In this document: positions 2,558-57,249 of the stretch, piece by piece
Layout: every line of letters starts with the position of its first letter
Position numbering within the stretch: the first letter of the stretch is position 1
Assembly (NCBI GenBank): GCA_958009085.1
Contig: OY253688.1
Span: forward strand, 1-64,000
Reading direction: 5' to 3'
Length of the DNA: 64,000 bases
From: Protoeuglena noctilucae
Lineage: Eukaryota
Notes under the pieces: model-generated
What the model was told of the DNA's origin: nothing
The model's input: only the letters and a program-made list of their open reading frames with translations
Databases searched by the model: none
Made by a program: the position numbers and the translations under genes

Positions 2558-5500
2558 ATGGCCGAGGCACCCGCCCCTGAGCCGGCGTCTCCGCCGGGAG
2601 AGCTGGCCCCTCCGGTGGCCGAGCCGGCGCCGGATGCGGGGGAGGGCGCTCCTGCTGCGTTGGCCACTCCCGAGCCCGCGCCAGCCGAGCCGACCCCTCC
2701 CCCCGCCTCCGTCCCTGCTCCGGACGAACATATTGTGGCGGAGGGCGGCGCTGCGGGCGAGCGAGACGCGGCAGAGCCGCGAGGAGAGGGCGCAGCGTCG
2801 GGGCAGGAACTCGACAGGGCCCCCGCCGTATCGGCCGACGGAGATCAGGAAGTCGAGTTGCTGGAGGACGACTTCTTTGAGCCGGAAATCATTCAGGTCG
2901 AGCGCGTCTCCGGAGGTGAGCCGAGCGCGGGAGGCGCGGCCTGCGCAGGGCAGGCGCGCATGCCGGGCATCCGGGGGCGCTCGTTTCGAGCTTTTTGTTC
3001 CTCACAGTCTTCCACCTGTATCTGCAATTATCAAACGTCTTGCTCGCCGGAGTTCATTCCTTGCCGACTCTCCCTCGGGGCGCTTTGGGGAGTGCCGGTC
3101 AAGTCACGCGCACCGCGAGGCCGCGCGCATCGTATTCGCCCCGCCGTCCCCCGCAGATGAGGAGGACGATTTTGCGGACCCTCCCCCTCCTCCCCGCCCC
3201 CCCCGTAAGGTCGCTGAGGCCTCCATCGACCTGTCCCAGGGCGCCAGCGTGCTTCTGGACGACGAGCTGGGGGCCGTGCTGATCGACGACGTGGACGATG
3301 TGAGACACAGACACAGAGACTCTCAGATTGCAACACGGGGTCTAGTTCTAGTGGAGACTGCATCCCTCTATGCTGACACCCCACCCACTCGCTCCTGTGC
3401 CCAACGCAGTTGGTGGCCCAGCTGCGGAGGACGGCCGTCCGCGCACAGCAGCCACGCGACGGCGCACCGCAGCCGCTCCCCGCGCTGGCCGCACCGGGTG
3501 GCGAGGCGTGGGGCCCGGTCGGGGCATCCGCAGGGGACCGGGAGCGTCTGCGCCGGCAGTGGGACGTGCCGGCAGCAGCAGCCACCCATGATGCGCGGGA
3601 CGCTGTCCCGGGAGCCATCGCTCCCTTCTCTGCCCCCCGCGTGCCGCCCCCGCACCTGGTCCCCTCCTCCCGCGCCGCCACCCGCCCCGCCAGCGCATCG
3701 GGGGGCGTGGGTGTGGCCCTGGGACCGGTGGGGGTGGGGGTGCCCGGGGAGAGGGTTACAACGCCCTTTGCCGGCAGCGACAGCGCTGCCCGCGTCAGGC
3801 GAGGGAGGGGCGGGCGCCATTGCTGCTAATGGCATGGGCGTGACGGTCGCTGCCATGGTCCCATTGTCGCCTATGATGTCCATGTGATCCACTGCCATCG
3901 TCGCAGGGACCGCATCGTGGCCGCGACGCAGCGGGAGGCGAGCCTGCGAGCGGAGGCGGAGCTCCACGCCTACGACATGCACGTGAGGGATGGGGTGCAT
4001 GGGGCATGGCTGCGATGATGAGGGAGGTGCACAGTCATGCAAGGGTGACCACAGCAACACACAGTGCAGTGCGGCATGTCGACTCAGACAGCCCACCCAC
4101 TGTGGTCACAGGTGTTGGAGCACGAGCGTGGGGCTTTGGAGGCGGAGTCCCGGGCGCTGCGGGAGGCGGTGCAGTCGCTGCGGGGGGAGCTGGCGGCGGT
4201 GTCTGCGGCGCTGGACGAGGAGCGGTCGCACCCCGCGTACGGCCGCGCGCTCGCCCTGGAGGCGGAGGTGCGGGGGCTGCGGCAGGCGGTGGAGGGGCAG
4301 CGGGAGGACTTGGCAGCCATGGCGAGGGAGGTGGAGGCGGAGAGGGCAGCGGGGAGGGAACTGCGGAACAGGTGGGGTGGGCGACAGGGGCAGGGGGCGT
4401 GGGGGATGGTGAGTGGCACTGCGTGGGTCACTCGCACGCGCCCACTCTGACCGCGTGTCGCAGGCTGGCGGCGGAGAGGGAGCGCGTGGCCCTGCTGCAG
4501 AGCGTCTTGCAGCAGGCGCTGGCGGAAAGGGTCGCGGAGAGGGAGGCGGCGCAGCAGCAGGCGGCAGCTGTATGGACGTTGCAAGTGAGTGTGGTTGGAT
4601 GCATGGGACACGTGGTGATGACATATTGCAGGTGTTGGTAGTGGCAGTGGTGGGGAGGAGGGGTTAGCAACCACGCTGGTCACCAGAGTGTGTGTTATTA
4701 CATGACATAATCTGCCCCTCCACCCCCTTGCGTGCGCAGGAGCAAGTCGCGTCGCTGTCGGCCGCGCTGACCCAAGCAGAGCACGACCACCGCATGCTGG
4801 CCAGGCAGGGGGCGGCGAGACCGGACTCGGCGCCCATCGCTGCGAATGGCCGCTCCCTCGCCGACCAGCGCCTGCGATCCATCGAGGCGACGCTGCGGGC
4901 GATGAGCGCAGTGGCGGAGGTGCGGGGGGGGTGGCCGCCGGGGCAGGGGGGGGAGGAGAGCCATGCAAAGGGTCGCCCGCCTTCGGGGAGGGCGCAGGCT
5001 GCTTCTCGCGCTGCTCTGGAGAGGGCAGAGACCCCCACGGCGCTGAGCGACCGCCAGCGGGCGGCCATAGCGCGGCGGCACCCAGGCGCGGACCCCGCGC
5101 TGCTGGAGCCGGCGGGCATCCCTGGGTACGCATTCCACCCCGACTTTGGCATCGTCCCCATTGTGGGGGACGGGCCTGACAGGGGGAGGGGTGGCGAGCG
5201 CATGCCGCCCCCGCAGCCGCCCCCTCCGCAGCCGCAGCCGGTCTCGCAGCCGCCCGCCCCGCTTCACGTGCACATTCACTCGGGGGCGGGGCCGCGGGGC
5301 GCGGGGTTGGAGTCGGGGGAGGGTGGCGAGGCGCGGGGGGCGGGGCAGGCGAGGGACGGGGGTGGCGGGGCCAGGGGCGGACCGGCTGCCTGGGGCGGCG
5401 CACCCGATGACTGGGATCGCAGGAACAGGGGAGGGCAGGGGAACGCACGGGGCAACGGGGTGGTTCCTGGGATGGGGATGGGCCCTGGGTTGGGGCCAGG

Positions 5501-6112: not shown

Positions 6113-8369
6113 TCACAGCGTGGTGTCCCTCCCGTCCAGCACGATGGCCACCACGTCCGGCGCGTCCTTGCCCTCCTTCACCACCTCCACGAGGATGCGC
6201 TGGCCCACCTCCAGCCCCTCCAGCGCCTTGTACAGGTCACCCGCGGACCGCACCGGCTTGCCGTTCACGCCCACGATGATGTCGCCCAGCCTGGGGGGGT
6301 GTGGAGTAGAGTAAGCGTGATATCATATATACGATCACAGCTAGCAATGACATTCAGTCATCTAATGCTTGTATCCGACTCGCCTGAGTCTGCCGTAGGG
6401 GTCCCGCGACGTGCCCCGGATGCCCGCGCGGTCGGCGGGCCCTCCCCTCTCGCACTCCAGCACCAGAATGCCTTGGATGCCCAGCTGAGACGCGGTGGCG
6501 TCGGGGGCGAAACTGGAAGGGGGGGGCGAGATGACAGGGTGATGGGGGATAACATGCAAGTGGAGAGCGGAGTGTTGCGTCTCATTGCACTCTCCCACGC
6601 CCACCTCTGCCGCTGCCCATGCCATCCCCCTCTCCCTCACCCGATGCCCATGACGGGTCGCACGACCCTTCCATTCGCCAGAATCTGCTCCACGCTGGTG
6701 CGGATGGCGTCGACCGGCACCGCGAACCCCACCCCGTTGCTGGCGCCGGACGCGGAGTAGATGGCCGTGGTCATGCCGATGACGTAACCAGAAGAATCCA
6801 AAAGGGGGCCGCCGGAGTTGCCGGGGTTGATGGCCGCGTCCGTCTGAGAGACAGCGCGTGTGGGGCAGTGCGTGGGTGGGGGATGGCGACGGGAGACGCA
6901 TGGCATGGGGTGGGGTGCATGCGCGAGGCAAGGTTGTTCGCCCCCTCTGCCTTATCTCATCCATCCCATGGCATCCGTTTGCATGACTCGTAACCATTCC
7001 TCTCATGTCATCCCCCTGCCTGACTTGTACAACCATCCCTCGCCTGTATGACTCCCTGGATGGGTCTCCCGTTAACGCCGCTGGAGATCTCCCGGTCCAC
7101 GGCGCTGACGAGACCTGATGTGAGGGTGTGGTCGAGGCCGAAGGGGTTGCCGATCACAAACACACGCTGGCCGACCATGATCTCTGCGGGTGGCATGGGC
7201 GGAGGGAGACGTGTCGCACGCAGTCACGTACACACATGGGCCCCCCTGCACCTCACCTGCACAGCAGCTATTGGCGCACAAACAACCCCCATACACGCAG
7301 CTCACCCGCACTGCAGCTATGTGCACGCAAACAACCCCCACGCCCGCATCTCACCCGCGCTGCGCCCGACCGGCAGCGGCTGCAGGAGCTGCCTGTCCTC
7401 CGGTGGCACATCGATGGCCAGCACCGCCACGTCCTTGTCGCCATCCGACCCGATGATGCGACCCACGTAGTCACGGGTGTCCTTGCCGTTAGGAAGCGTC
7501 ACCGTCACCTGCGCACACGATAACATGGGAGGTGGGTGAAGGCGCAACAGCCGCGCTTGCACACATCCCATCACCTGCTATCCAGCAGCCCAGCTCGGCA
7601 GTGCCATCACTCACCTGCACGGACCCCGACCCCCGCACCACGTGCAGGTTGGTGACGATGTGGCCGCTCTTGTCCCACACGAACCCTGGGGGTTTCATGG
7701 AGGAAAGGGAAGGCTTGCAGGTGTCGATGCAGCGCACCCATGCCCACCCGTATCGCATGGCATGGCTGGCATGGCATGGCATGGCATAGCATCGCATGGC
7801 GCATCACATCGCATGGCATGGCACATGGCCTGCTCCCCTGCTCCTCTGCTCCTCACCAGTGCCTTCCCCCAGCGGCACGTCCATCACGTCCTGGGTGAAA
7901 GAGTCTTTGGCCTTGCGCAGCGTGGTGATGAAGACGACCGAGGGGCGACTGCGCTTAAACATCTCCACCGTCCGCGTCTCTTCCGCCGTCAGGCGGCCCA
8001 GGGCCAGGGCCGGGAGCGGGGCGGGCCACAGGGACGAGAACGACACCGCCACCGCGACCAGCGCCGCGGCCAGACGCGAGGCGTGGCCGACGCTGCGGTC
8101 CTTCTCGCGGGCTGCGCGGCACGCGGTTCCGGGCCGCTGGGCGCCGCCCGCGCATCGCGAGCGAGGGATCGGGCCCGCCAGACAAGCGGCCCCGTGATGC
8201 CTGCGACGCGGGAGGGGCCGGGGCGCGGTAAGTGCATCCGCATGTGATAAATCGTCGACTACATGACAGAGAGGACCCACCATAGATGCCCCGCGGGGCG
8301 CCTTGGGCCAACGCAACGCGCGGAAGCCACTGCCGAGCCATCCCACGAGGCCGCCGCGACGCCCGCCAT
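6113..8369 (-). CDS. DEG1: Deg1-like HtrA/DegP serine protease with PDZ domain, probably plastid-targeted (8 exons)
   Basis: [17 protein letters not shown] (His), DKDVAVL (Asp), [32 protein letters not shown] (Ser); PDZ with [18 protein letters not shown]. Confidence 0.9.
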
Positions 8370-21034: not shown

Positions 21035-24000
21035 ATGTGGGCCCTGGGCTCGCGGGAGAACAAGGACCAGGAGCTTAACGACCTCCTTTCTCAGCTGGCC
21101 GCGGTGCAAAAGCAAGAGCCCGCTTCTCAGCTCAACGAGAGGTGCGAGGGCGCGTGTGTTGCTTTACAGGCTCTGGTTGGACGCGATGGTGCCCGGTCCT
21201 CTACCGATGCGTCGTGTGTAACTGTGAGTGTCGTTTGCTGTCTCCGGCGTGCCTGGAACGCTCGTGGCGAGTCACTGCAACTCCACCTAAACGCAGGGTG
21301 GCCGTGGAGATCGTTTTGAAACTCCAATCGCAAGGCGCGTTCGGCTCGGACGGTCTCATCAATACCATAGGTGACCCTTGCGTAACCGCGGAGGCGCTTG
21401 ACACGTGCATGCGCGCAGAGGGCACGGCAAGCGGGATGAACATGGCTTTTACGCCCGCGCATCGCCCCGCTCGCAGATGGCCGGGAGTATCTGACTCGCT
21501 CACACCTCCGCAAGGAGCTTGCGCAGCTGCTGGAGTCCTCCGGGGGCCGCCTGACGCTCTCGGACGCGGCAAACGCGCTGCGCGTCCACGCTTTGCACCT
21601 CCGTGCCGCTGCGGAGGACATCGCCGACGTCCGCGGCGCCGACGCCCTCGCTGCGGCGGTATCGAATGCGCATTCGGACACCCCCGCGCCCTTCTCGGTG
21701 GCACTCGTGGGCGGGGAGCTGCTCTCGCGGGCGTACGTGGAGGGAACGGTCGCATCCACCCTGGCCGCGCAGCTGGGTTGCTCCGGTCGTGTCCCCGTCG
21801 CTGCGCTTGCCCGCGAGCTGTCCCTGCCGTCTGACGTGGTGCGCCCCGTCCTGGCCGCCTGCGCCCCTCGCCTCTCCCCGCCCGCGCGCCTCATCCGCGG
21901 CCACGCCTACACTGATGCTCACCTGCTGCAGCTGCGGGGGGCGGCGAGGGAGCGGCTGCGGGCGGCGAGGGAGCCAGTGACGCTGGCGGACCTGGCGACG
22001 GAGCTGGCCGGGGATGGGGAGCTGGATGGCGAGGTGGTGCGGGAGGCAGTGGCAGAGATGGTGGGGAGCGGGGAAGTGCCGGGGAGCCTGACAGGTGGGT
22101 GATGGACTATTATGAAGAGTTATATATGTGAATTGAATGAACGTGGTTGTTAATCAAGAGCGTTGCAGTGTGCCTGGCAGCCCGGGGCGGTGACGCGAAA
22201 GCGCGTGGCAGTGTGTGGTGACGTGGCTTCGCCCATTCTGCCGCAGCGGGTGGTTCCCGCTTCGAGCCATCGTCTCACCGGGAGACCCTCCTGGCCCAGC
22301 TGGCCTCGTCCCTGCGCGCGACTGGCGTGGTGACGTTCAAAGAGGCCAAGGCACGGGGGGTGGGGAGAGGAGCAGCGGCGTTGGTGGATGCGCTGGGGGA
22401 CGCGGCGGTGGGGGCGGTGGCTCTGCCGACGCTGCTGGTGGGGAGGGAGGCGGTGGAAGCAGCCAGGGTGAGGGGGGTGGGGTGGGATGAGGGAGGGAGG
22501 GAGTGAGTGAATGAGTGAGAGAGTGAGTGAGTGTGGGAGTGAGTGAGTGGTTGACAGAGTGGGTGAGGGAGAGTGCTGTCGGTAGAAGTGTTTCTTTGCA
22601 TGGGTGACCCACTAGTGTGACGGCATCAATCATATATAGTCACTAGCTACAGCCTTCTGTTCATTCACCCCCCCTCATCTCTCATCTCTCCCCATCTCCC
22701 CAGGCCCGCGTGTCTGAGGCGGTGGCTCTCGAGTCATGGGTGGACATGGCCACGGTGCTGCCAGCCGCCTTCACCGCCCCCGACATCCGGGCACTGCTGG
22801 CGCACCTGGGTCAGACGGGCACGGCGCTGTCGCTGGGGGTGGCAGGGGGGCAGGGGAGGTGGGGGGACGCGGAGGGGGCAGCGGTGGTGGCAGACACGTG
22901 TGCGGGTGAGAGAGATGGGTGGATATGGGGTGGTGGCAGACACGTGTGCGCGTGAGAGAGAGGTGTTAGTAGATGTGGGGTGGTGGCAACAGATGGGTGC
23001 TTAATAGTAAGCATGCGTGTCATCCCTCGCACCCACCTCTCCCTCTCTGGTTCTGCACTCTTCACCCACACATGTTGTCCACTCCTACACCCCACTTCCT
23101 CCCCCCGCAGTCAGCCACGTGTTTTTGAATCAAGCATTGGACCGCCTGGAGTCATCCGCACGAGCAGAGGCGGCATCGCAGTTGCGCAAGGGAAGCAACA
23201 ACAACAACAACAGGGGCCATGCACAAGGAAAGGGCGGGGGTGGGCGGCGGGGTGGCACGGATGGTTTCCAATCACAATCGCAGTCACAGCCACAATTGCA
23301 GTCAATGTCCGTGCCTGACGCGGCGTGGGTGTCTTCGCGTCTGTCGTCGATGTTCCGTGACTTGGAGGGGGCGGGGGCGGACGGGGGACTGGTGGAGGGA
23401 GTGGCGGAGATGATGGTGGGGGAGGTGAGGGAGGGAGTGGGGTGTAGGAGTGGACAACATGTGTGGGTGAAGAGTGCAGAACCAGAGAGGGAGAGGTGGG
23501 TGCGAGGGATGAGAGATGCCTGTGTGTACGTATTCGAGTACGGGTGATGCGCCATCAGTTGCGTGAGTCACTGTTGGGTCCACGGAACGAAACAAGTCGG
23601 GAGAACTTGTCTTCATATCACAGCATGTCTCTCTCTCCCCATTCATTTCCAGGTCCGTTCCTGTTTCCTGGATACGATCGCCACTCTGCGTGAGAGGGAG
23701 GCGCAGTCAAGAGACGCGGCCCGGCACGGCATCGCGGAAGTGGCGGCGGCGGCATACCAGGAAGCATGGATGGTGAGTGATGTGGAGGGGGAGCGGGAAG
23801 GGTATGGTATGTAGTACTATGTATGGTAAGTGACCACACTCTGCCTCGCATGCGCAGGAGTGGCATCCCGGTCACTGCCACTCCCCCACTCCCCCATTCA
23901 CCCACTCCCTCACTCCTTCCCCCTTTCAGATGGAGGAGGGCGCGTCCGTCTGTGCCACCTCCCTCCACCTCGACACCCCCACGCTGGCAATGGTGCGGGC

Positions 24001-25354
24001 GGAGGCAGGGTCTGCGAGGGGTGCGGTGCTGCTGTCACTGCTGAGGGCGGCGGACTTCTTGGATGGGCAGCCGGGGGCGGGGGACGTGGAGAGCGTGCGA
24101 GAGTGGTTGGAGCAGGTGAGGGTGCGAGTGGCATGGAGACGGTCATGATAATGATGATGATGCCATCACATGCACGAGCATGCGCATCTATCTACCGCCT
24201 AATCATCTCATCCATCGCCATCCACCCCTATCACCCACTGTAACACTCATCGCACCTTCTCATCCCTCTGCAGAGTGCGGGCCCTGCCACGGTCGACCTC
24301 TCCTCCGACCGCTCCCCCCCACCCCCGCCCCTGGCCTCCCTGCTGTCGCGGCGGGGCAGCCCCCGCGCCCAGGCAGCACTCCAAGCACTGCAGGAGAGAC
24401 TGGACGCGGGGGGACTGACGCGGCCGTGGCTGGACGACACGGCCACGCTGGCACGGTGAGGGGTGGCAGTCGGGGTGGCCACATGTGACGCGACTGGTGG
24501 ATATGGAAGGGTGGAGTTGAGCATGGAGTTTAGCATGTGTTGCGACTGATGGGCCGACTGAAGCACCGAGCACTAACATCGCTCGTCACCCTCGCAACCC
24601 ATCCTTGTTTCCGCTTTGTTCTCATCACTCTACTGCAACTCATGCCACTCACACCCATCCCCATCCCCCACCCCCTCAGGTCCCACTGCGGCATGCCACT
24701 CACATGTATCCCCTGTCCCCATCTCTCTGCCATGTGCCACTCACATGCAACCCATCTCCCATCCCCCCACCCACCCCCTCTCAGGTCCCACTGCGGCATG
24801 CCCCTGTCGCCCCCGCCTGCCCCCCTGGCCGCCTCCGCCACTGCCGCCCTCTGCGCCCACTTGACCATTGCTTTGCGGTCCGTGGATGTGGTGGGGTCCT
24901 TCGCGTGCGCACTGCCGCTGGCACTCGCGTCGCGGTGGGGCGCGTGCGTGCGTGTGCCGCTGCGTGCGGTGCCTGGGGTGGTCAAGGCGATGCGGGCAGC
25001 GATGACGGAACAGGAGGGGCAGCTGCTGGCGGAGGTGAGGGAGGGGTGTGATGGGGGATGACTGTACTACAGTGGGTGTGACCCAGGGCAGCTGATGGGC
25101 ATGCTTGCGCGTTCGCCTCTCATCTCCCCCAGCACTGGCACAAGTGTGATACAGTGGATGTGCTCAAATGTAGTATGCTTAGTAATTGAGCATAATCGAT
25201 TTCGTCCCCCCCCCCCCAGCACGCTTCCAACGTGGTGGATGTGCTGAAGGGCGCGGCTTGGGCGCAGGAGAGGGGAGCCGAGACGCTGAAGAGACTGGTG
25301 GAGATGCTGTGCAAGGATGGGGATGGGGATGGAGATAAGGATGCGCAGGGGTAG
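21035..25354 (+). CDS. UFL1: E3 UFM1-protein ligase 1 (11 exons)
   Basis: N-terminus ELNDLLSQLAAVQ...QLNERVAVEIVLKL...LINTIDGREYLTRSHLRKEL...GGRLTLSD matches the UFL1 signature; phase-consistent GT-AG introns. Confidence 0.85.
23020..23512. repeat. Perfect 77-bp inverted repeat (arms 23020-23096 and 23436-23512) flanking UFL1 exon 23111-23424
   Basis: Arm 2 is the exact reverse complement of arm 1 (TCATCCCTCGCACCCACC...CTACACCCCACT), checked base by base. Confidence 0.95.
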
Positions 25355-25556
25355 AGGAATGCGCTGTGCGACGGCGGTGACCCATGCAGCGTGGGTGAGA
25401 GCGAGGGTGCTAGGGGTTGCAAAGAGCATCGACAGACTCTAGACATCGCTGCTGTTGCTGTCGCATGCTTTGAAGCGTGTTGTTCGTTGCGTCGCACAAA
25501 GGTGCGTGTGATTGAATGTCCTAGTAATCATCGGCACGGTCTGTCACGGCCTGGCG

Positions 25557-54248: not shown

Positions 54249-55431
54249 ATGCTGCCTCTCATCTCCGTCGCCCTATCATGTCTAGCTCTGCTTGTGGGGG
54301 TGTCCGGTGAGGCCGCAGGCTCGGCGACTCGTCCCTGTGGCCACTACGACGTGCAACGCACTTATCCGACCTCCGGAGCCCGCTGGGATCCGTGGCTCAT
54401 TCAGAATAGGCTCATCGGCACAATACCGCCCCTGCGCACCGCAGGCCACGTGGAGTTCGACCCCATGGTGGCTCCGACGGACGGTGACGACTTTGCCTTT
54501 GCCATCAACGTTGGGCACGGCTGCAACGGCGAGGCGACCACGCGCCTGGACGTGCAGATTCCCACGAACTACGTCGAGGTGCGTGGGATGCGTCGGGTTC
54601 CCCGCAGTGCGTCGCGACGCGCTGGCGCCTGCCCCTGGCTGGACAGGGAATCGCCTGCTCGCTGCGCCCGCTGCAGGGACTGGTGCGGCCCCAGACTGGC
54701 GAAATGATTGGGTGGACAGGCGTGTACTTCGCAAACAACAACACGGTGGCTTATTACGCGACGGATTCCGCGTATTACGTCCCCGACGCGTACTTCTTCA
54801 AGCTGGGCATGGAGGTGCGTGTGAACCGCATCGTGGAATGCGCGAAATGCGACATAAGTATCACATCGCGAGAAATAGATCGCTGGCCTGCTGCGAATCG
54901 CTTTCCCGCTCAAGATGCAGGTCCAGCTGACCCCCGTGAACGTCCCGTCCGGTCAGGTCGTCATGGCCACGTTCCCCACGCGGCAGACGTGCACCAATGG
55001 GCAGGTGCGGCGGAGGGGTGCTGACAGGGCGTCATGTTGCCACAACACCAACCTGCTTGCGACGCCACGCTTGCGACGTCTGCTCCTCTGCCACCGCTTG
55101 CGCAGTACACGGACTGGACGTCGTCGGACATGAGCTCGTCGACGCCTGCGCCCATGCTGCACTTCGAGAACGCGAGCACGTCCTCCTCGAGCAGCCATGA
55201 CGGGTGCGTGGCTGGCGACGCTTACCAGCACCCTCACGCACCGCGTCTCCGCTGGTGTCCGCGCCGATGCTGAAAACACTACCCTCTCCAACCCGCAGGC
55301 TGTCCATCGCTGCGATCGTCCTGTCGGCCATCGCGATCGCTGCGGTGGTGTGCAGCTGGATCTTTGGCTTCTTTGTGCGACGCGGTATGCGGAGCCTGGA
55401 GGAGAGTGAGAAGGGGAACGACCGCGTTTGA
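54249..55431 (+). CDS. YcnI/DUF1775-like putative copper-binding type I membrane protein, copy 1 (6 exons)
   Basis: Signal peptide MLPLISVALSCLALLVGVSG, then HVEFDP...F.INVGHGCNGEATTRLDVQIP...FPTRQTCTNGQYTDW...PAPMLHF, a Ser linker and a C-terminal TM helix. Confidence 0.8.
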
Positions 55432-55825
55432 TGGGACTCGCCTCCATTTCTCTCCCCTCGATGTAGATCGAATCGTAATCATTTGCTTAAGGGTACCCCT
55501 ACAGTGGGCAGCAGAGCCGGTTTCAATCGGATCACAATTAAGGGACACTCGTGCACTGCCGTTCCCATTGACGCCCATCAGCACAAGCGCAGCTAGTAGG
55601 CTCCGAGCTCCACGCGCTGAGTTGGCGACGAGCTGACCCTGACGCCTCAGGGACAGCACGTTGCAGTGCGCCAGACACACGCTGTCCCTGACAACGCGTT
55701 GCCCGCTCATGCCGGCCAGTGACGGCCAGTGCGAACTCTGCTTACAAAGTCAGCGCTGCACCGCGTCCATCACCTCAATCAGCTGCCGCACGTCGTGCAG
55801 GCTGTCTCTCCTAGGCGTATCAGCC

Positions 55826-57011
55826 ATGCGGGCGCTCGCGATCGCTTTATCATGCTTGATGCTGATAGCAGAGGTGTCCGGTGAGGCCGTGGGCCGGTGT
55901 TGTGTCCCCAAGGCCGCTCGGATGCGCGTGACACCCGATCCGATCTCCTGTGACCGCTTGGGTCCGTTGCGCATCCTCAGCAGCTTCATTGAAACGCTTA
56001 AACCGATATACGCTGCAGGTCACGTGGAGTTCGACCCCATGGAGGCTCCTACGGGCGGCGCCTACTTCATGTTCGACATCGTGGTGGGGCACGGCTGCAA
56101 CGGCGAGGCGACCACGCGCCTGGACGTGCAGATTCCCACGAACTACGTCGAGGTGCGTGGCATGCGTAGGATTGCCCGCGTTTCCTTGCCGCGCTGGAGC
56201 TGCCCCCTTGCCCTTACGGCATCGCAAGCTTGCTGCGCCCGCTGCAGGGACTGGTGCGCCCCCAGGCCGGCGCCATGGTCGGATGGACGGGTGTTTATTA
56301 CGCAAACAACAACACGGTGGCGTATTATGCGACGGATCCGCAGTACTACGTCCCCAACTCTTCCTTCTTCAAGCTGGGCATGAGCGTGCGTTTGCGAAGT
56401 GCCCACGAAGCGATACAAGTATCATAGCGTAGGGGGCGTCTCGCGCCGTTGACTGCAGTGAATCGCTCTACTTTATATGCAGGTCCAGCTGACCCCCGTG
56501 AGCGTCCCGGACGGCCAGGTCGTCATGGCCACGTTCCCCACGCGGCAGACGTGCACCAATGGGCAGGTGCGGCGGAGGGGTGCTGACAGGGCGTCATGTT
56601 GCCACAACACCAACCTGCTTGCGACGCCACGCTTGCGACGTCTGCTCCTCTGCCACCGCTTGCGCAGTACACGGACTGGACGTCGTCGGACATGAGCTCG
56701 TCGACGCCTGCGCCCATGCTGCACTTCGAGAACGCGAGCACGTCCTCCTCGAGCAGCCACGACGGGTGCGCTGCTGCCAGCGATTCTCCACCGCCCGCTA
56801 ACATTCCCCAACCCTTCCCCGACCGTCCCCAGCGTCTGTGGTGACGTGCACAGAGACACGGCGCTCTCCTGCTCGCAGGCTGTCCATCGCTGCGATCGTC
56901 CTGTCGGCCGTCGCCATCGCTGCGGTGCTGTGCAGCTGGATTTTCAGCTTCTTTGTGCGACGTGGGATGCAGAGCCTGGAGGAGAGTGAGAGCGGGAAGG
57001 ACCGCGTGTAA
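55826..57011 (+). CDS. YcnI/DUF1775-like putative copper-binding type I membrane protein, copy 2 (6 exons)
   Basis: Tandem paralogue with the same intron positions: MRALAIALSCLMLIAEVSG-HVEFDPMEAP...VGHGCNGEATTRLDVQIP...TDW...PAPML...TM. Confidence 0.8.
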
Positions 57012-57249
57012 GCACACGCCTATCTCTCTGCAAAGGAGGAGTATTGGCAATTCGATGAAATGTCAAATGGCGGTATGGTTTAACCCCCAGGTTTCGCCCC
57101 AACGTCTGTTTGAACAACACGCGACGCCCTTTCTCCACACTAGCTAGAGATGTGTCAGTGAAGCATTCCCATCATCGGATTGGCATTGCCTGCGTAAGTT
57201 TATTACTCGAAGTCGGGGCCGGGGCGCCTTCTCGCGGGGGAAGGCCGCC

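Follow-up and report, generated by a model that had tools for sequence, protein, structure and literature searches.

Exon 6 of UFL1, which encodes the E3 UFM1-protein ligase 1, was found in Protoeuglena noctilucae to be enclosed by a near-perfect inverted repeat, with one arm in each of the flanking introns (Table 1). This repeat is probably (at about 0.68) a scar left when sequence was recently copied, once and locally, and not an evolved regulatory device, and we infer that it arose by a fold-back mechanism, that it is recent and that the transcript escapes it by co-transcriptional splicing. Its single copy, sharp edges and 99% identity between arms fit a recent single event. The locus lies within the first 64,000 nt of contig OY253688.1 (assembly GCA_958009085.1), the stretch of DNA analyzed here and referred to as the window, which opens with telomeric repeats and has a G+C content of ~64%.

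Table 1. Features of the UFL1 locus (positions in the window)
Feature	Positions	Strand	Description
UFL1 (E3 UFM1-protein ligase 1)	21035..25400	+	11-exon model, ~800 aa, single copy; 3' end approximate
Intron 5	22906..23110	+	205 nt, GT..AG; first half tandem duplication, second half arm 1
Arm 1	23020..23103	+	C-rich 3' zone of intron 5; -91 to -8 from acceptor; perfect part 23020-23096
Inner 6 bp and U·G/mismatch beside perfect tract	23097..23103	+	Candidate pre-existing priming microhomology with 23429-23435
UFL1 exon 6 (looped-out exon)	23111..23424	+	314 nt, codons 408-512, phase 1 to 0
Intron 6	23425..23652	+	228 nt, GT..AG, arm 2 at its start; boundaries inferred from frame and homology
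Arm 2	23429..23512	+	G-rich 5' zone of intron 6; +5 to +88 from donor; perfect part 23436-23512
Premature stop if exon 6 is skipped	23691..23693	+	In codon 421 of about 800; four junctions lie beyond it

Sequence and Authenticity of the Inverted Repeat

The perfect parts of the two arms are exact reverse complements over 77 of 77 nt, as an earlier note on this DNA had reported. Past this tract there is one mismatch (T at 23097 against G at 23435, a U·G pair in RNA) followed by six further pairs, giving an extended repeat of 84 nt with 83 matches (98.8%) and a spacer of 325–339 nt. The gaps of 14 and 11 nt between the perfect arms and the exon are likewise as described before; with the extension, the helix reaches acceptor position -8 and donor position +5. 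The similarity is sharply bounded at 23020/23512 and at 23103/23429 with no decayed extension, and no target-site duplication of at least 2 nt was found at the outer ends. The fold of 22900–23660 has a z-score of -16.2 against 20 shuffles, which chance would not be expected to give. A short DNA hairpin (22998–23014; stem 6 bp, loop 4 nt) is found a few bases beyond the outer limit of arm 1 and could have been the stall or break site. When the whole genome (26.3 Mb, 27 contigs) was searched with arm 1 for the dispersed element considered in the earlier note, only two places were returned, the two arms themselves, by a search which passes over very common words.

An independent DNA run from another sample (X6, 2016) bears on the concern, also voiced earlier, that one arm might be misassembled. 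Its contigs break at 23049 and 23483, 30 nt inside the outer arm ends, and a third contig spans 23020–23209, from arm 1 into exon 6; none of the three has a differing letter. X6 thus matches three of the four repeat junctions (both outer ones and the inner one of arm 1), the inner junction of arm 2 being absent among the X6 pieces listed. Contig ends of this kind are what a true inverted repeat produces in a de Bruijn graph, so the repeat is, as far as testable, not an assembly artefact. Four runs of the organism each contain a share of 1.00 of 467 sampled words, all coming from one sample and not being independent. The runs containing the locus are those of the organism itself and marine metagenomes. 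Over 4.4 kb the sole difference in X6 is one base less in a C-run of intron 10 (window position 25206), which makes X6 nearly the same strain and uninformative on population variation.

The UFL1 Gene and Exon 6

The 11-exon model has an open frame of 802 codons and aligns with positions 2–759 of 771 of a profile of 29 full-length homologs (E = 4.7e-124), the nearest protein relative being at 45%. An exon upstream of the repeat matches Pfam E3_UFM1_ligase (E = 2.4e-21), the sole such match genome-wide, and UFM1 was found in the genome as well. Exon 6 by itself is without a Pfam or PDB match; alone, it matches positions 361–499 of the homolog profile (E = 1.7e-10), and by its homology it is a native, conserved part of UFL1 and not captured DNA. 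With a conserved exon 6 in the only UFL1 copy of a genome that also has UFM1, bulk skipping of this exon would be costly. Its length was pointed out earlier as not being a multiple of three, which is true but ordinary, the same holding for 92 of 158 predicted internal exons.

Introns 1, 2, 9, and 10 were confirmed by spliced contigs of RNA run X10. This run and X9 (unspliced contigs only) consist of metatranscriptome contigs, whose UFL1 cover lies outside exon 6 and the exon 5–7 junctions. Neither a skip joint (22905 to 23653) nor a back-splice joint (23424 to 23111) appeared in them, which with such cover weighs neither for nor against these products. Of the two splice sites of exon 6, an independent predictor using a coding model found the acceptor and missed the donor. 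Two candidate joints were rejected as they look like sequence of other organisms, namely 23217 to 23734 in X10 (with a 20-nt side, non-canonical ends and long loose ends) and a piece joining 23216 to 23785 in X13.

Intron 5 contains a tandem duplication (22883–22988, period 46) of the end of exon 5 and its donor, the second copy having one different base immediately ahead of the GT. Close to arm 1 on its upstream side, a weak AAG acceptor (23010–23012) would add 99 nt in frame without a stop (33 residues) and is a possible bypass if the stem forms. The acceptor zone of intron 9 is also duplicated (24641–24802, period about 51), and RNA uses the distal acceptor at 24784.

Inverted Repeats in a Genome Sample

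Outside the window, 23 contigs were sampled in 97 pieces of 10 kb (970 kb), which were scanned piece by piece, with repeats across the 10-kb borders being missed. Exact inverted repeats with spacers of up to 3 kb were no longer than 19 nt, and by our arithmetic zero comparable repeats in 970 kb gives a bound of ~3 per Mb; the inverted-repeat scan suggested in the earlier note, applied to a sample of 3.9% of the genome, brought out no genome-wide class. Exact cross-exon matches in 158 other consecutive pairs of predicted introns reached 12 nt at most. Since G-rich 5' and C-rich 3' intron ends are alike on either strand, inverted matches with the pyrimidine arm first mark cross-exon geometry. 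Such matches of at least 10 nt occur at 29.8 per 1e8 position pairs at 200–400 nt spacing (50 counts) and at 24.7–27.7 per 1e8 at 400–6400 nt, with no clear excess at 200–400 nt. A search for degenerate inverted copies in 864 kb gave two matches, one being the UFL1 repeat and the other a low-complexity match at 66%, and a further 17 pieces gave one match at 74%. The UFL1 exon 6 repeat is a singleton in about 1 Mb, and exons are without an excess of flanking complementarity. The lack of older, decayed inverted copies implies either that inverted events seldom happen or that their products are purged; in the latter case, neutrality would not be the usual state of such stems.

Rates of inverted and direct matches were computed without locus L033, which carries a long inverted duplication with a spacer of >3 kb near the start of contig C3. 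This duplication (3610–4478 and 7697–8361 of the locus) is of 631 nt at 99.5%, one arm having a perfect 168-nt tandem copy, and looks like a recent rearrangement or a long-TIR element.

Mirror-Image Intron Ends and Direct Duplications

The intron predictor returned 508 introns and was validated only at UFL1, where six of the ten modelled introns were recovered exactly. Across 441 predicted introns, the donor zone resembles the reverse-complemented acceptor zone in composition at each distance from the splice site. G next to the site has a frequency of 0.46 in donor zones and 0.44 in reverse-complemented acceptor zones, and the G/C skew is strongest there. Cross-validated classifiers trained on donor and reversed acceptor zones of 372 introns gave AUC values of 0.49–0.60. 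With compositions this nearly equal, a reversed donor zone passes as an acceptor zone, and vice versa.

Pairable intron ends are known from intron bridging, with AC/GT in fish and GGG/CCC in human (PMC4691745). The present genome likewise has pairable G-rich 5' and C-rich 3' ends, whereas the UFL1 arms lie in introns 5 and 6 and would pair across the exon and not within one intron. Cross-exon pairing has been called inhibitory and is avoided in zebrafish (PMC4691745). It is not avoided in this genome: cross-exon duplexes of 40 nt have a mean of -25.2 kcal/mol, compared with -24.4 within the same introns and -23.7 when permuted (148 pairs). Against random partners (about -21.5 kcal/mol), own-intron 40-nt duplexes were at -23.0 kcal/mol, and cross-exon ones were also slightly stronger. 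Nothing relevant on G-rich and C-rich intron ends in algae was found in the literature searched, which covered few subscription papers.

Direct duplication is strongly local, with 156–379 direct matches of at least 14 nt per 1e8 within 200 nt vs. 2.4 at 3.2–6.4 kb. In 864 kb there are 69 local direct duplications, most being 70–95% identical and three at 98% or above. An exact copy of at least 13 nt of the upstream exon end was found in 26 of 428 predicted introns and of the downstream exon start in 15 of 428 (controls 0 of 2140 for each). Tandem duplication of splice junctions into neighbouring introns could seed alternative or sliding splice sites. A larger tandem duplication in the window (54268–57029, period about 1574 nt) is 79% identical overall, with a 300-nt stretch at 98%.

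Predicted RNA Fold and Splicing Outcome

The duplex of arm 1 and arm 2 has a predicted energy of -191.6 kcal/mol. The predicted full fold has arm 1, and with it each A between -89 and -17, in the paired state, as it has the donor side from +5 onward (unpaired probability 0.00), in agreement with the earlier remark that arm 1 covers the likely branch region. The best yUnAy branch candidate within the arm is the A at 23064 (-47), and branch-like motifs of predicted introns peak at -40 to -11. Only 7 nt lie between the helix and exon 6, with no A except in the AG. Because the helix buries the branch region and the donor from +5 onward, it should, if it forms in time, make skipping or retention likelier than back-splicing.

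Whether it forms in time would depend on transcription. Arm 2 starts 318 nt after the intron-5 acceptor, and intron 5 could commit to splicing while these 318 nt are transcribed. Fast splicing of short introns may use such a transcription window. An early-commitment window for short introns is also supported by a kinetic splicing model (cited within PMC8052449).

A UPF1 domain was found in the genome above cut-off. Skipped mRNA carrying the premature stop would therefore probably be degraded and would be missed in ordinary RNA-seq, and skipping or retention is to be expected incidentally, to some extent, with NMD removing the products. The stem is also a long double-stranded one, as in hairpin precursors of small RNAs, and an exon-by-exon search of the genome, which can miss split domains, gave no match for a Piwi/Argonaute domain. 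This absence speaks weakly against a small-RNA role, and the genome may lack RNA interference.

Origin of the Repeat

The suggested event took place in the course of replication or of break repair. A nascent strand with its end in the C-rich acceptor tract of intron 5 (or the G-rich donor tract of intron 6) would have made a fold-back of about 325 nt and used the complementary tract across exon 6 for priming; it would then have been extended outward by up to 77 nt before its return to its own template. Priming would be likeliest beside the splice sites, where the G/C skew peaks, and copying would be directed outward, so that the repeat would come to hug the exon and spare the GT and AG without selection for this geometry. 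Tolerance of the product would rest on two features: in this genome donor zones become, statistically, acceptor zones on reversal, and intron 5 could already be committed to splicing when arm 2 is transcribed. For the priming microhomology, the inner 6 bp and the mismatch fit, while the outer end could be judged only with an ancestor. With so few local duplications at 98% or above, the repeat (98.8%) looks young; at 6% divergence the probability of no more than one mismatch in 84 is 0.035, and it is lower at higher divergence. Human conserved pairings steer clear of branch points and active splice sites (PMC8052449), and a repeat which covers them counts for a neutral scar.

Template switching acts over distances of tens to hundreds of nucleotides, with ape tracts having a median of 12 and a maximum of 128 nt (PMC7954356), and makes perfect stems in one step (PMC10710096). 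As in the short-range mutations described by the four-point model (PMC7954356, PMC10710096, PMC13100816), the UFL1 repeat has a near-identical reverse-complement copy nearby from a local, non-dispersed source, and is single-copy and intronic with a tract within the reported range. It differs in that its tract is long, its 325-nt spacer comprises a whole coding exon and its arms abut both splice sites. Template-switch mutations are defined by their ancestral state, whereas the UFL1 repeat is known from one allele, near-identical in X6. Inverted insertions made by fold-back repair at double-strand breaks (PMC11724301) are alike in being inverted local copies from fold-back priming, and the DNA hairpin outside arm 1 would also fit; however, those copies are mostly of 5–34 bp at the break, compared with 77–84 nt and a 325-nt spacer in UFL1. 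By sequence alone, fold-back repair and a replication switch are indistinguishable.

The mirror symmetry of the two zones makes the direction of copying indistinguishable by composition. Six Markov classifiers gave likelihood ratios of 0.96–1.17 and no decision, and zones without CT/AG are equally common in both classes (37 and 40 of 372) and were of no help. Arm 2 has an 11-nt direct match to the end of exon 6, which was equalled in 54 of 2000 shuffles and in 7 of 202 G-rich zones. This match (P about 0.03, post hoc) gives a slight lean towards arm 2 being native and arm 1 the copy. No ancestral allele or outgroup was found in X6 (near-identical), in X13 (identical 151-nt pieces) or by a word-indexed protein search. 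A metagenome scan with exon 5 had locus L083 among the matches listed; it was rejected, since by our reading it lies in an integrase-like gene without introns, of bacterial or phage type.

Several observations weigh against a scar. The 77-nt tract is in the upper tail of those reported and the 325-nt loop is long. The shortage of decayed inverted copies, which may mean that such stems are normally purged, counts here as well. At the sole departure from identity there is a U·G pair, which selection acting on an RNA helix would permit, though this is one case. A change of this type also belongs to the commonest mutation class. Lastly, a duplex with a predicted -192 kcal/mol is unlikely to be wholly inert.

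Alternative Explanations

The alternatives concern either what the stem does or how it came about. A functional skipping switch would have the stem form on some transcripts, hide the branch region and donor and loop out exon 6, the frameshifted mRNA then being degraded; it would tune the UFL1 level with elongation rate or temperature, with selection now maintaining the stem whatever its origin. The burial of all candidate branch As and the donor in the predicted fold, and a stop that falls at codon 421, ahead of four further junctions, in a genome with UPF1, are as such a switch would have them. Looped-out human exons are also less included (PMC8052449) and reverse-complementary matches in C. 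elegans promote both skipping and circles (PMC8330042). We nevertheless consider a switch unlikely, as the arms are near-identical without accumulated wobble or compensatory pairs and the repeat is a singleton, while known selected cases use short conserved matches, such as that of 13 nt in zip-2 (PMC8330042). A circRNA generator, in which the stem would bring the donor and acceptor of exon 6 together so that the 314-nt exon is closed into a circle, was the leading idea of the earlier note. Complementary arms in both flanking introns are indeed shared with the Alu pairs of ZKSCAN1 (PMC4201285) and with zip-2 (PMC8330042), the UFL1 arms of 84 nt exceed the 30–40 nt of inverted repeat which suffices in miniature introns (PMC4201285, PMC5814467), and the predicted geometry juxtaposes both splice sites. 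However, the UFL1 arms are not transposon-derived, and in the predicted fold the helix covers the likely branch region and the donor from +5 onward, where circle-forming introns keep them outside. Back-splicing needs an upstream branch point, and the minimal circle-forming upstream intron of 87 nt holds a branch point and 3' splice site besides its 40-nt repeat, with stronger hairpins sometimes blocking circles (PMC4201285). The circle would also meet stops in all three frames, and we hold a circle generator to be highly improbable; the earlier note's own remark on the branch region thus weakens its leading idea.

As to origin, an older, imperfect complementarity might have been perfected by repeated quasi-palindrome correction or by gene conversion between the arms, in place of a single de novo copy. 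The zones are already complementary in composition, as the mean cross-exon duplex energy indicates, and template switching between imperfect arms homogenises and extends repeats (PMC13100816). Such stepwise perfection is very unlikely, given the sharp edges at both ends and a background of exact cross-exon matches of 12 nt or less, against which a long prior repeat would itself need an origin. The length and perfection of the arms also recall the terminal inverted repeats of a DNA transposon captured by, or landed around, exon 6. This has been largely refuted and is now hardly credible: dispersed copies, a target-site duplication and foreign cargo, as expected of TIR transposons, MITEs and Pack-type elements, were not found in the searches described above, and the enclosed DNA is a native, in-frame, conserved UFL1 exon. 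Fold-back chimeras also yield perfect inverted repeats, and the inner junction of arm 2 lacks a counterpart among the X6 pieces listed, but an assembly or sequencing artefact is extremely unlikely with X6 contigs breaking as a true repeat demands, three junctions without differences and agreement among the four (non-independent) runs. A recent template switch between the C-rich acceptor and G-rich donor zones, which the earlier note had offered as its fallback, fits best with the single copy, the 99% identity, the mirror-symmetric intron ends and the lack of a class. Of its other proposals, the frameshifting skip may occur, and nothing found speaks for regulation of UFMylation.

Implications

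Template-switch repeats and exon-flanking complementarity are each known kinds already. No report of UFL1 skipping or circles, or of a template-switch repeat clamping an exon, was found among the matches listed in a search which covered few subscription papers. As a neutral scar, the repeat is of little importance, except as a demonstration that splice signals can tolerate a long, local inverted copy on top of them. It is improbable, on our estimate, that one switch put a reversed donor zone in place of the branch and pyrimidine zone and simultaneously created a kinetic splice switch on UFL1 exon 6; if it did, a regulatory RNA structure would have been born in a single event, and the interchangeability of donor and acceptor zones by inversion would have a natural proof in this lineage. 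The locus offers a clean natural test of two questions. One is whether the splicing of a short intron can be completed ahead of a helix of 84 bp when transcription reaches the second arm about 320 nt later; the other is whether a regulator of splicing can arise by template switching in a single step, an origin already proposed for the stems of miRNAs (PMC10710096). The mirror-image intron ends and the frequent duplication of splice junctions are a genome-wide trait, and may merit more attention than the repeat itself.
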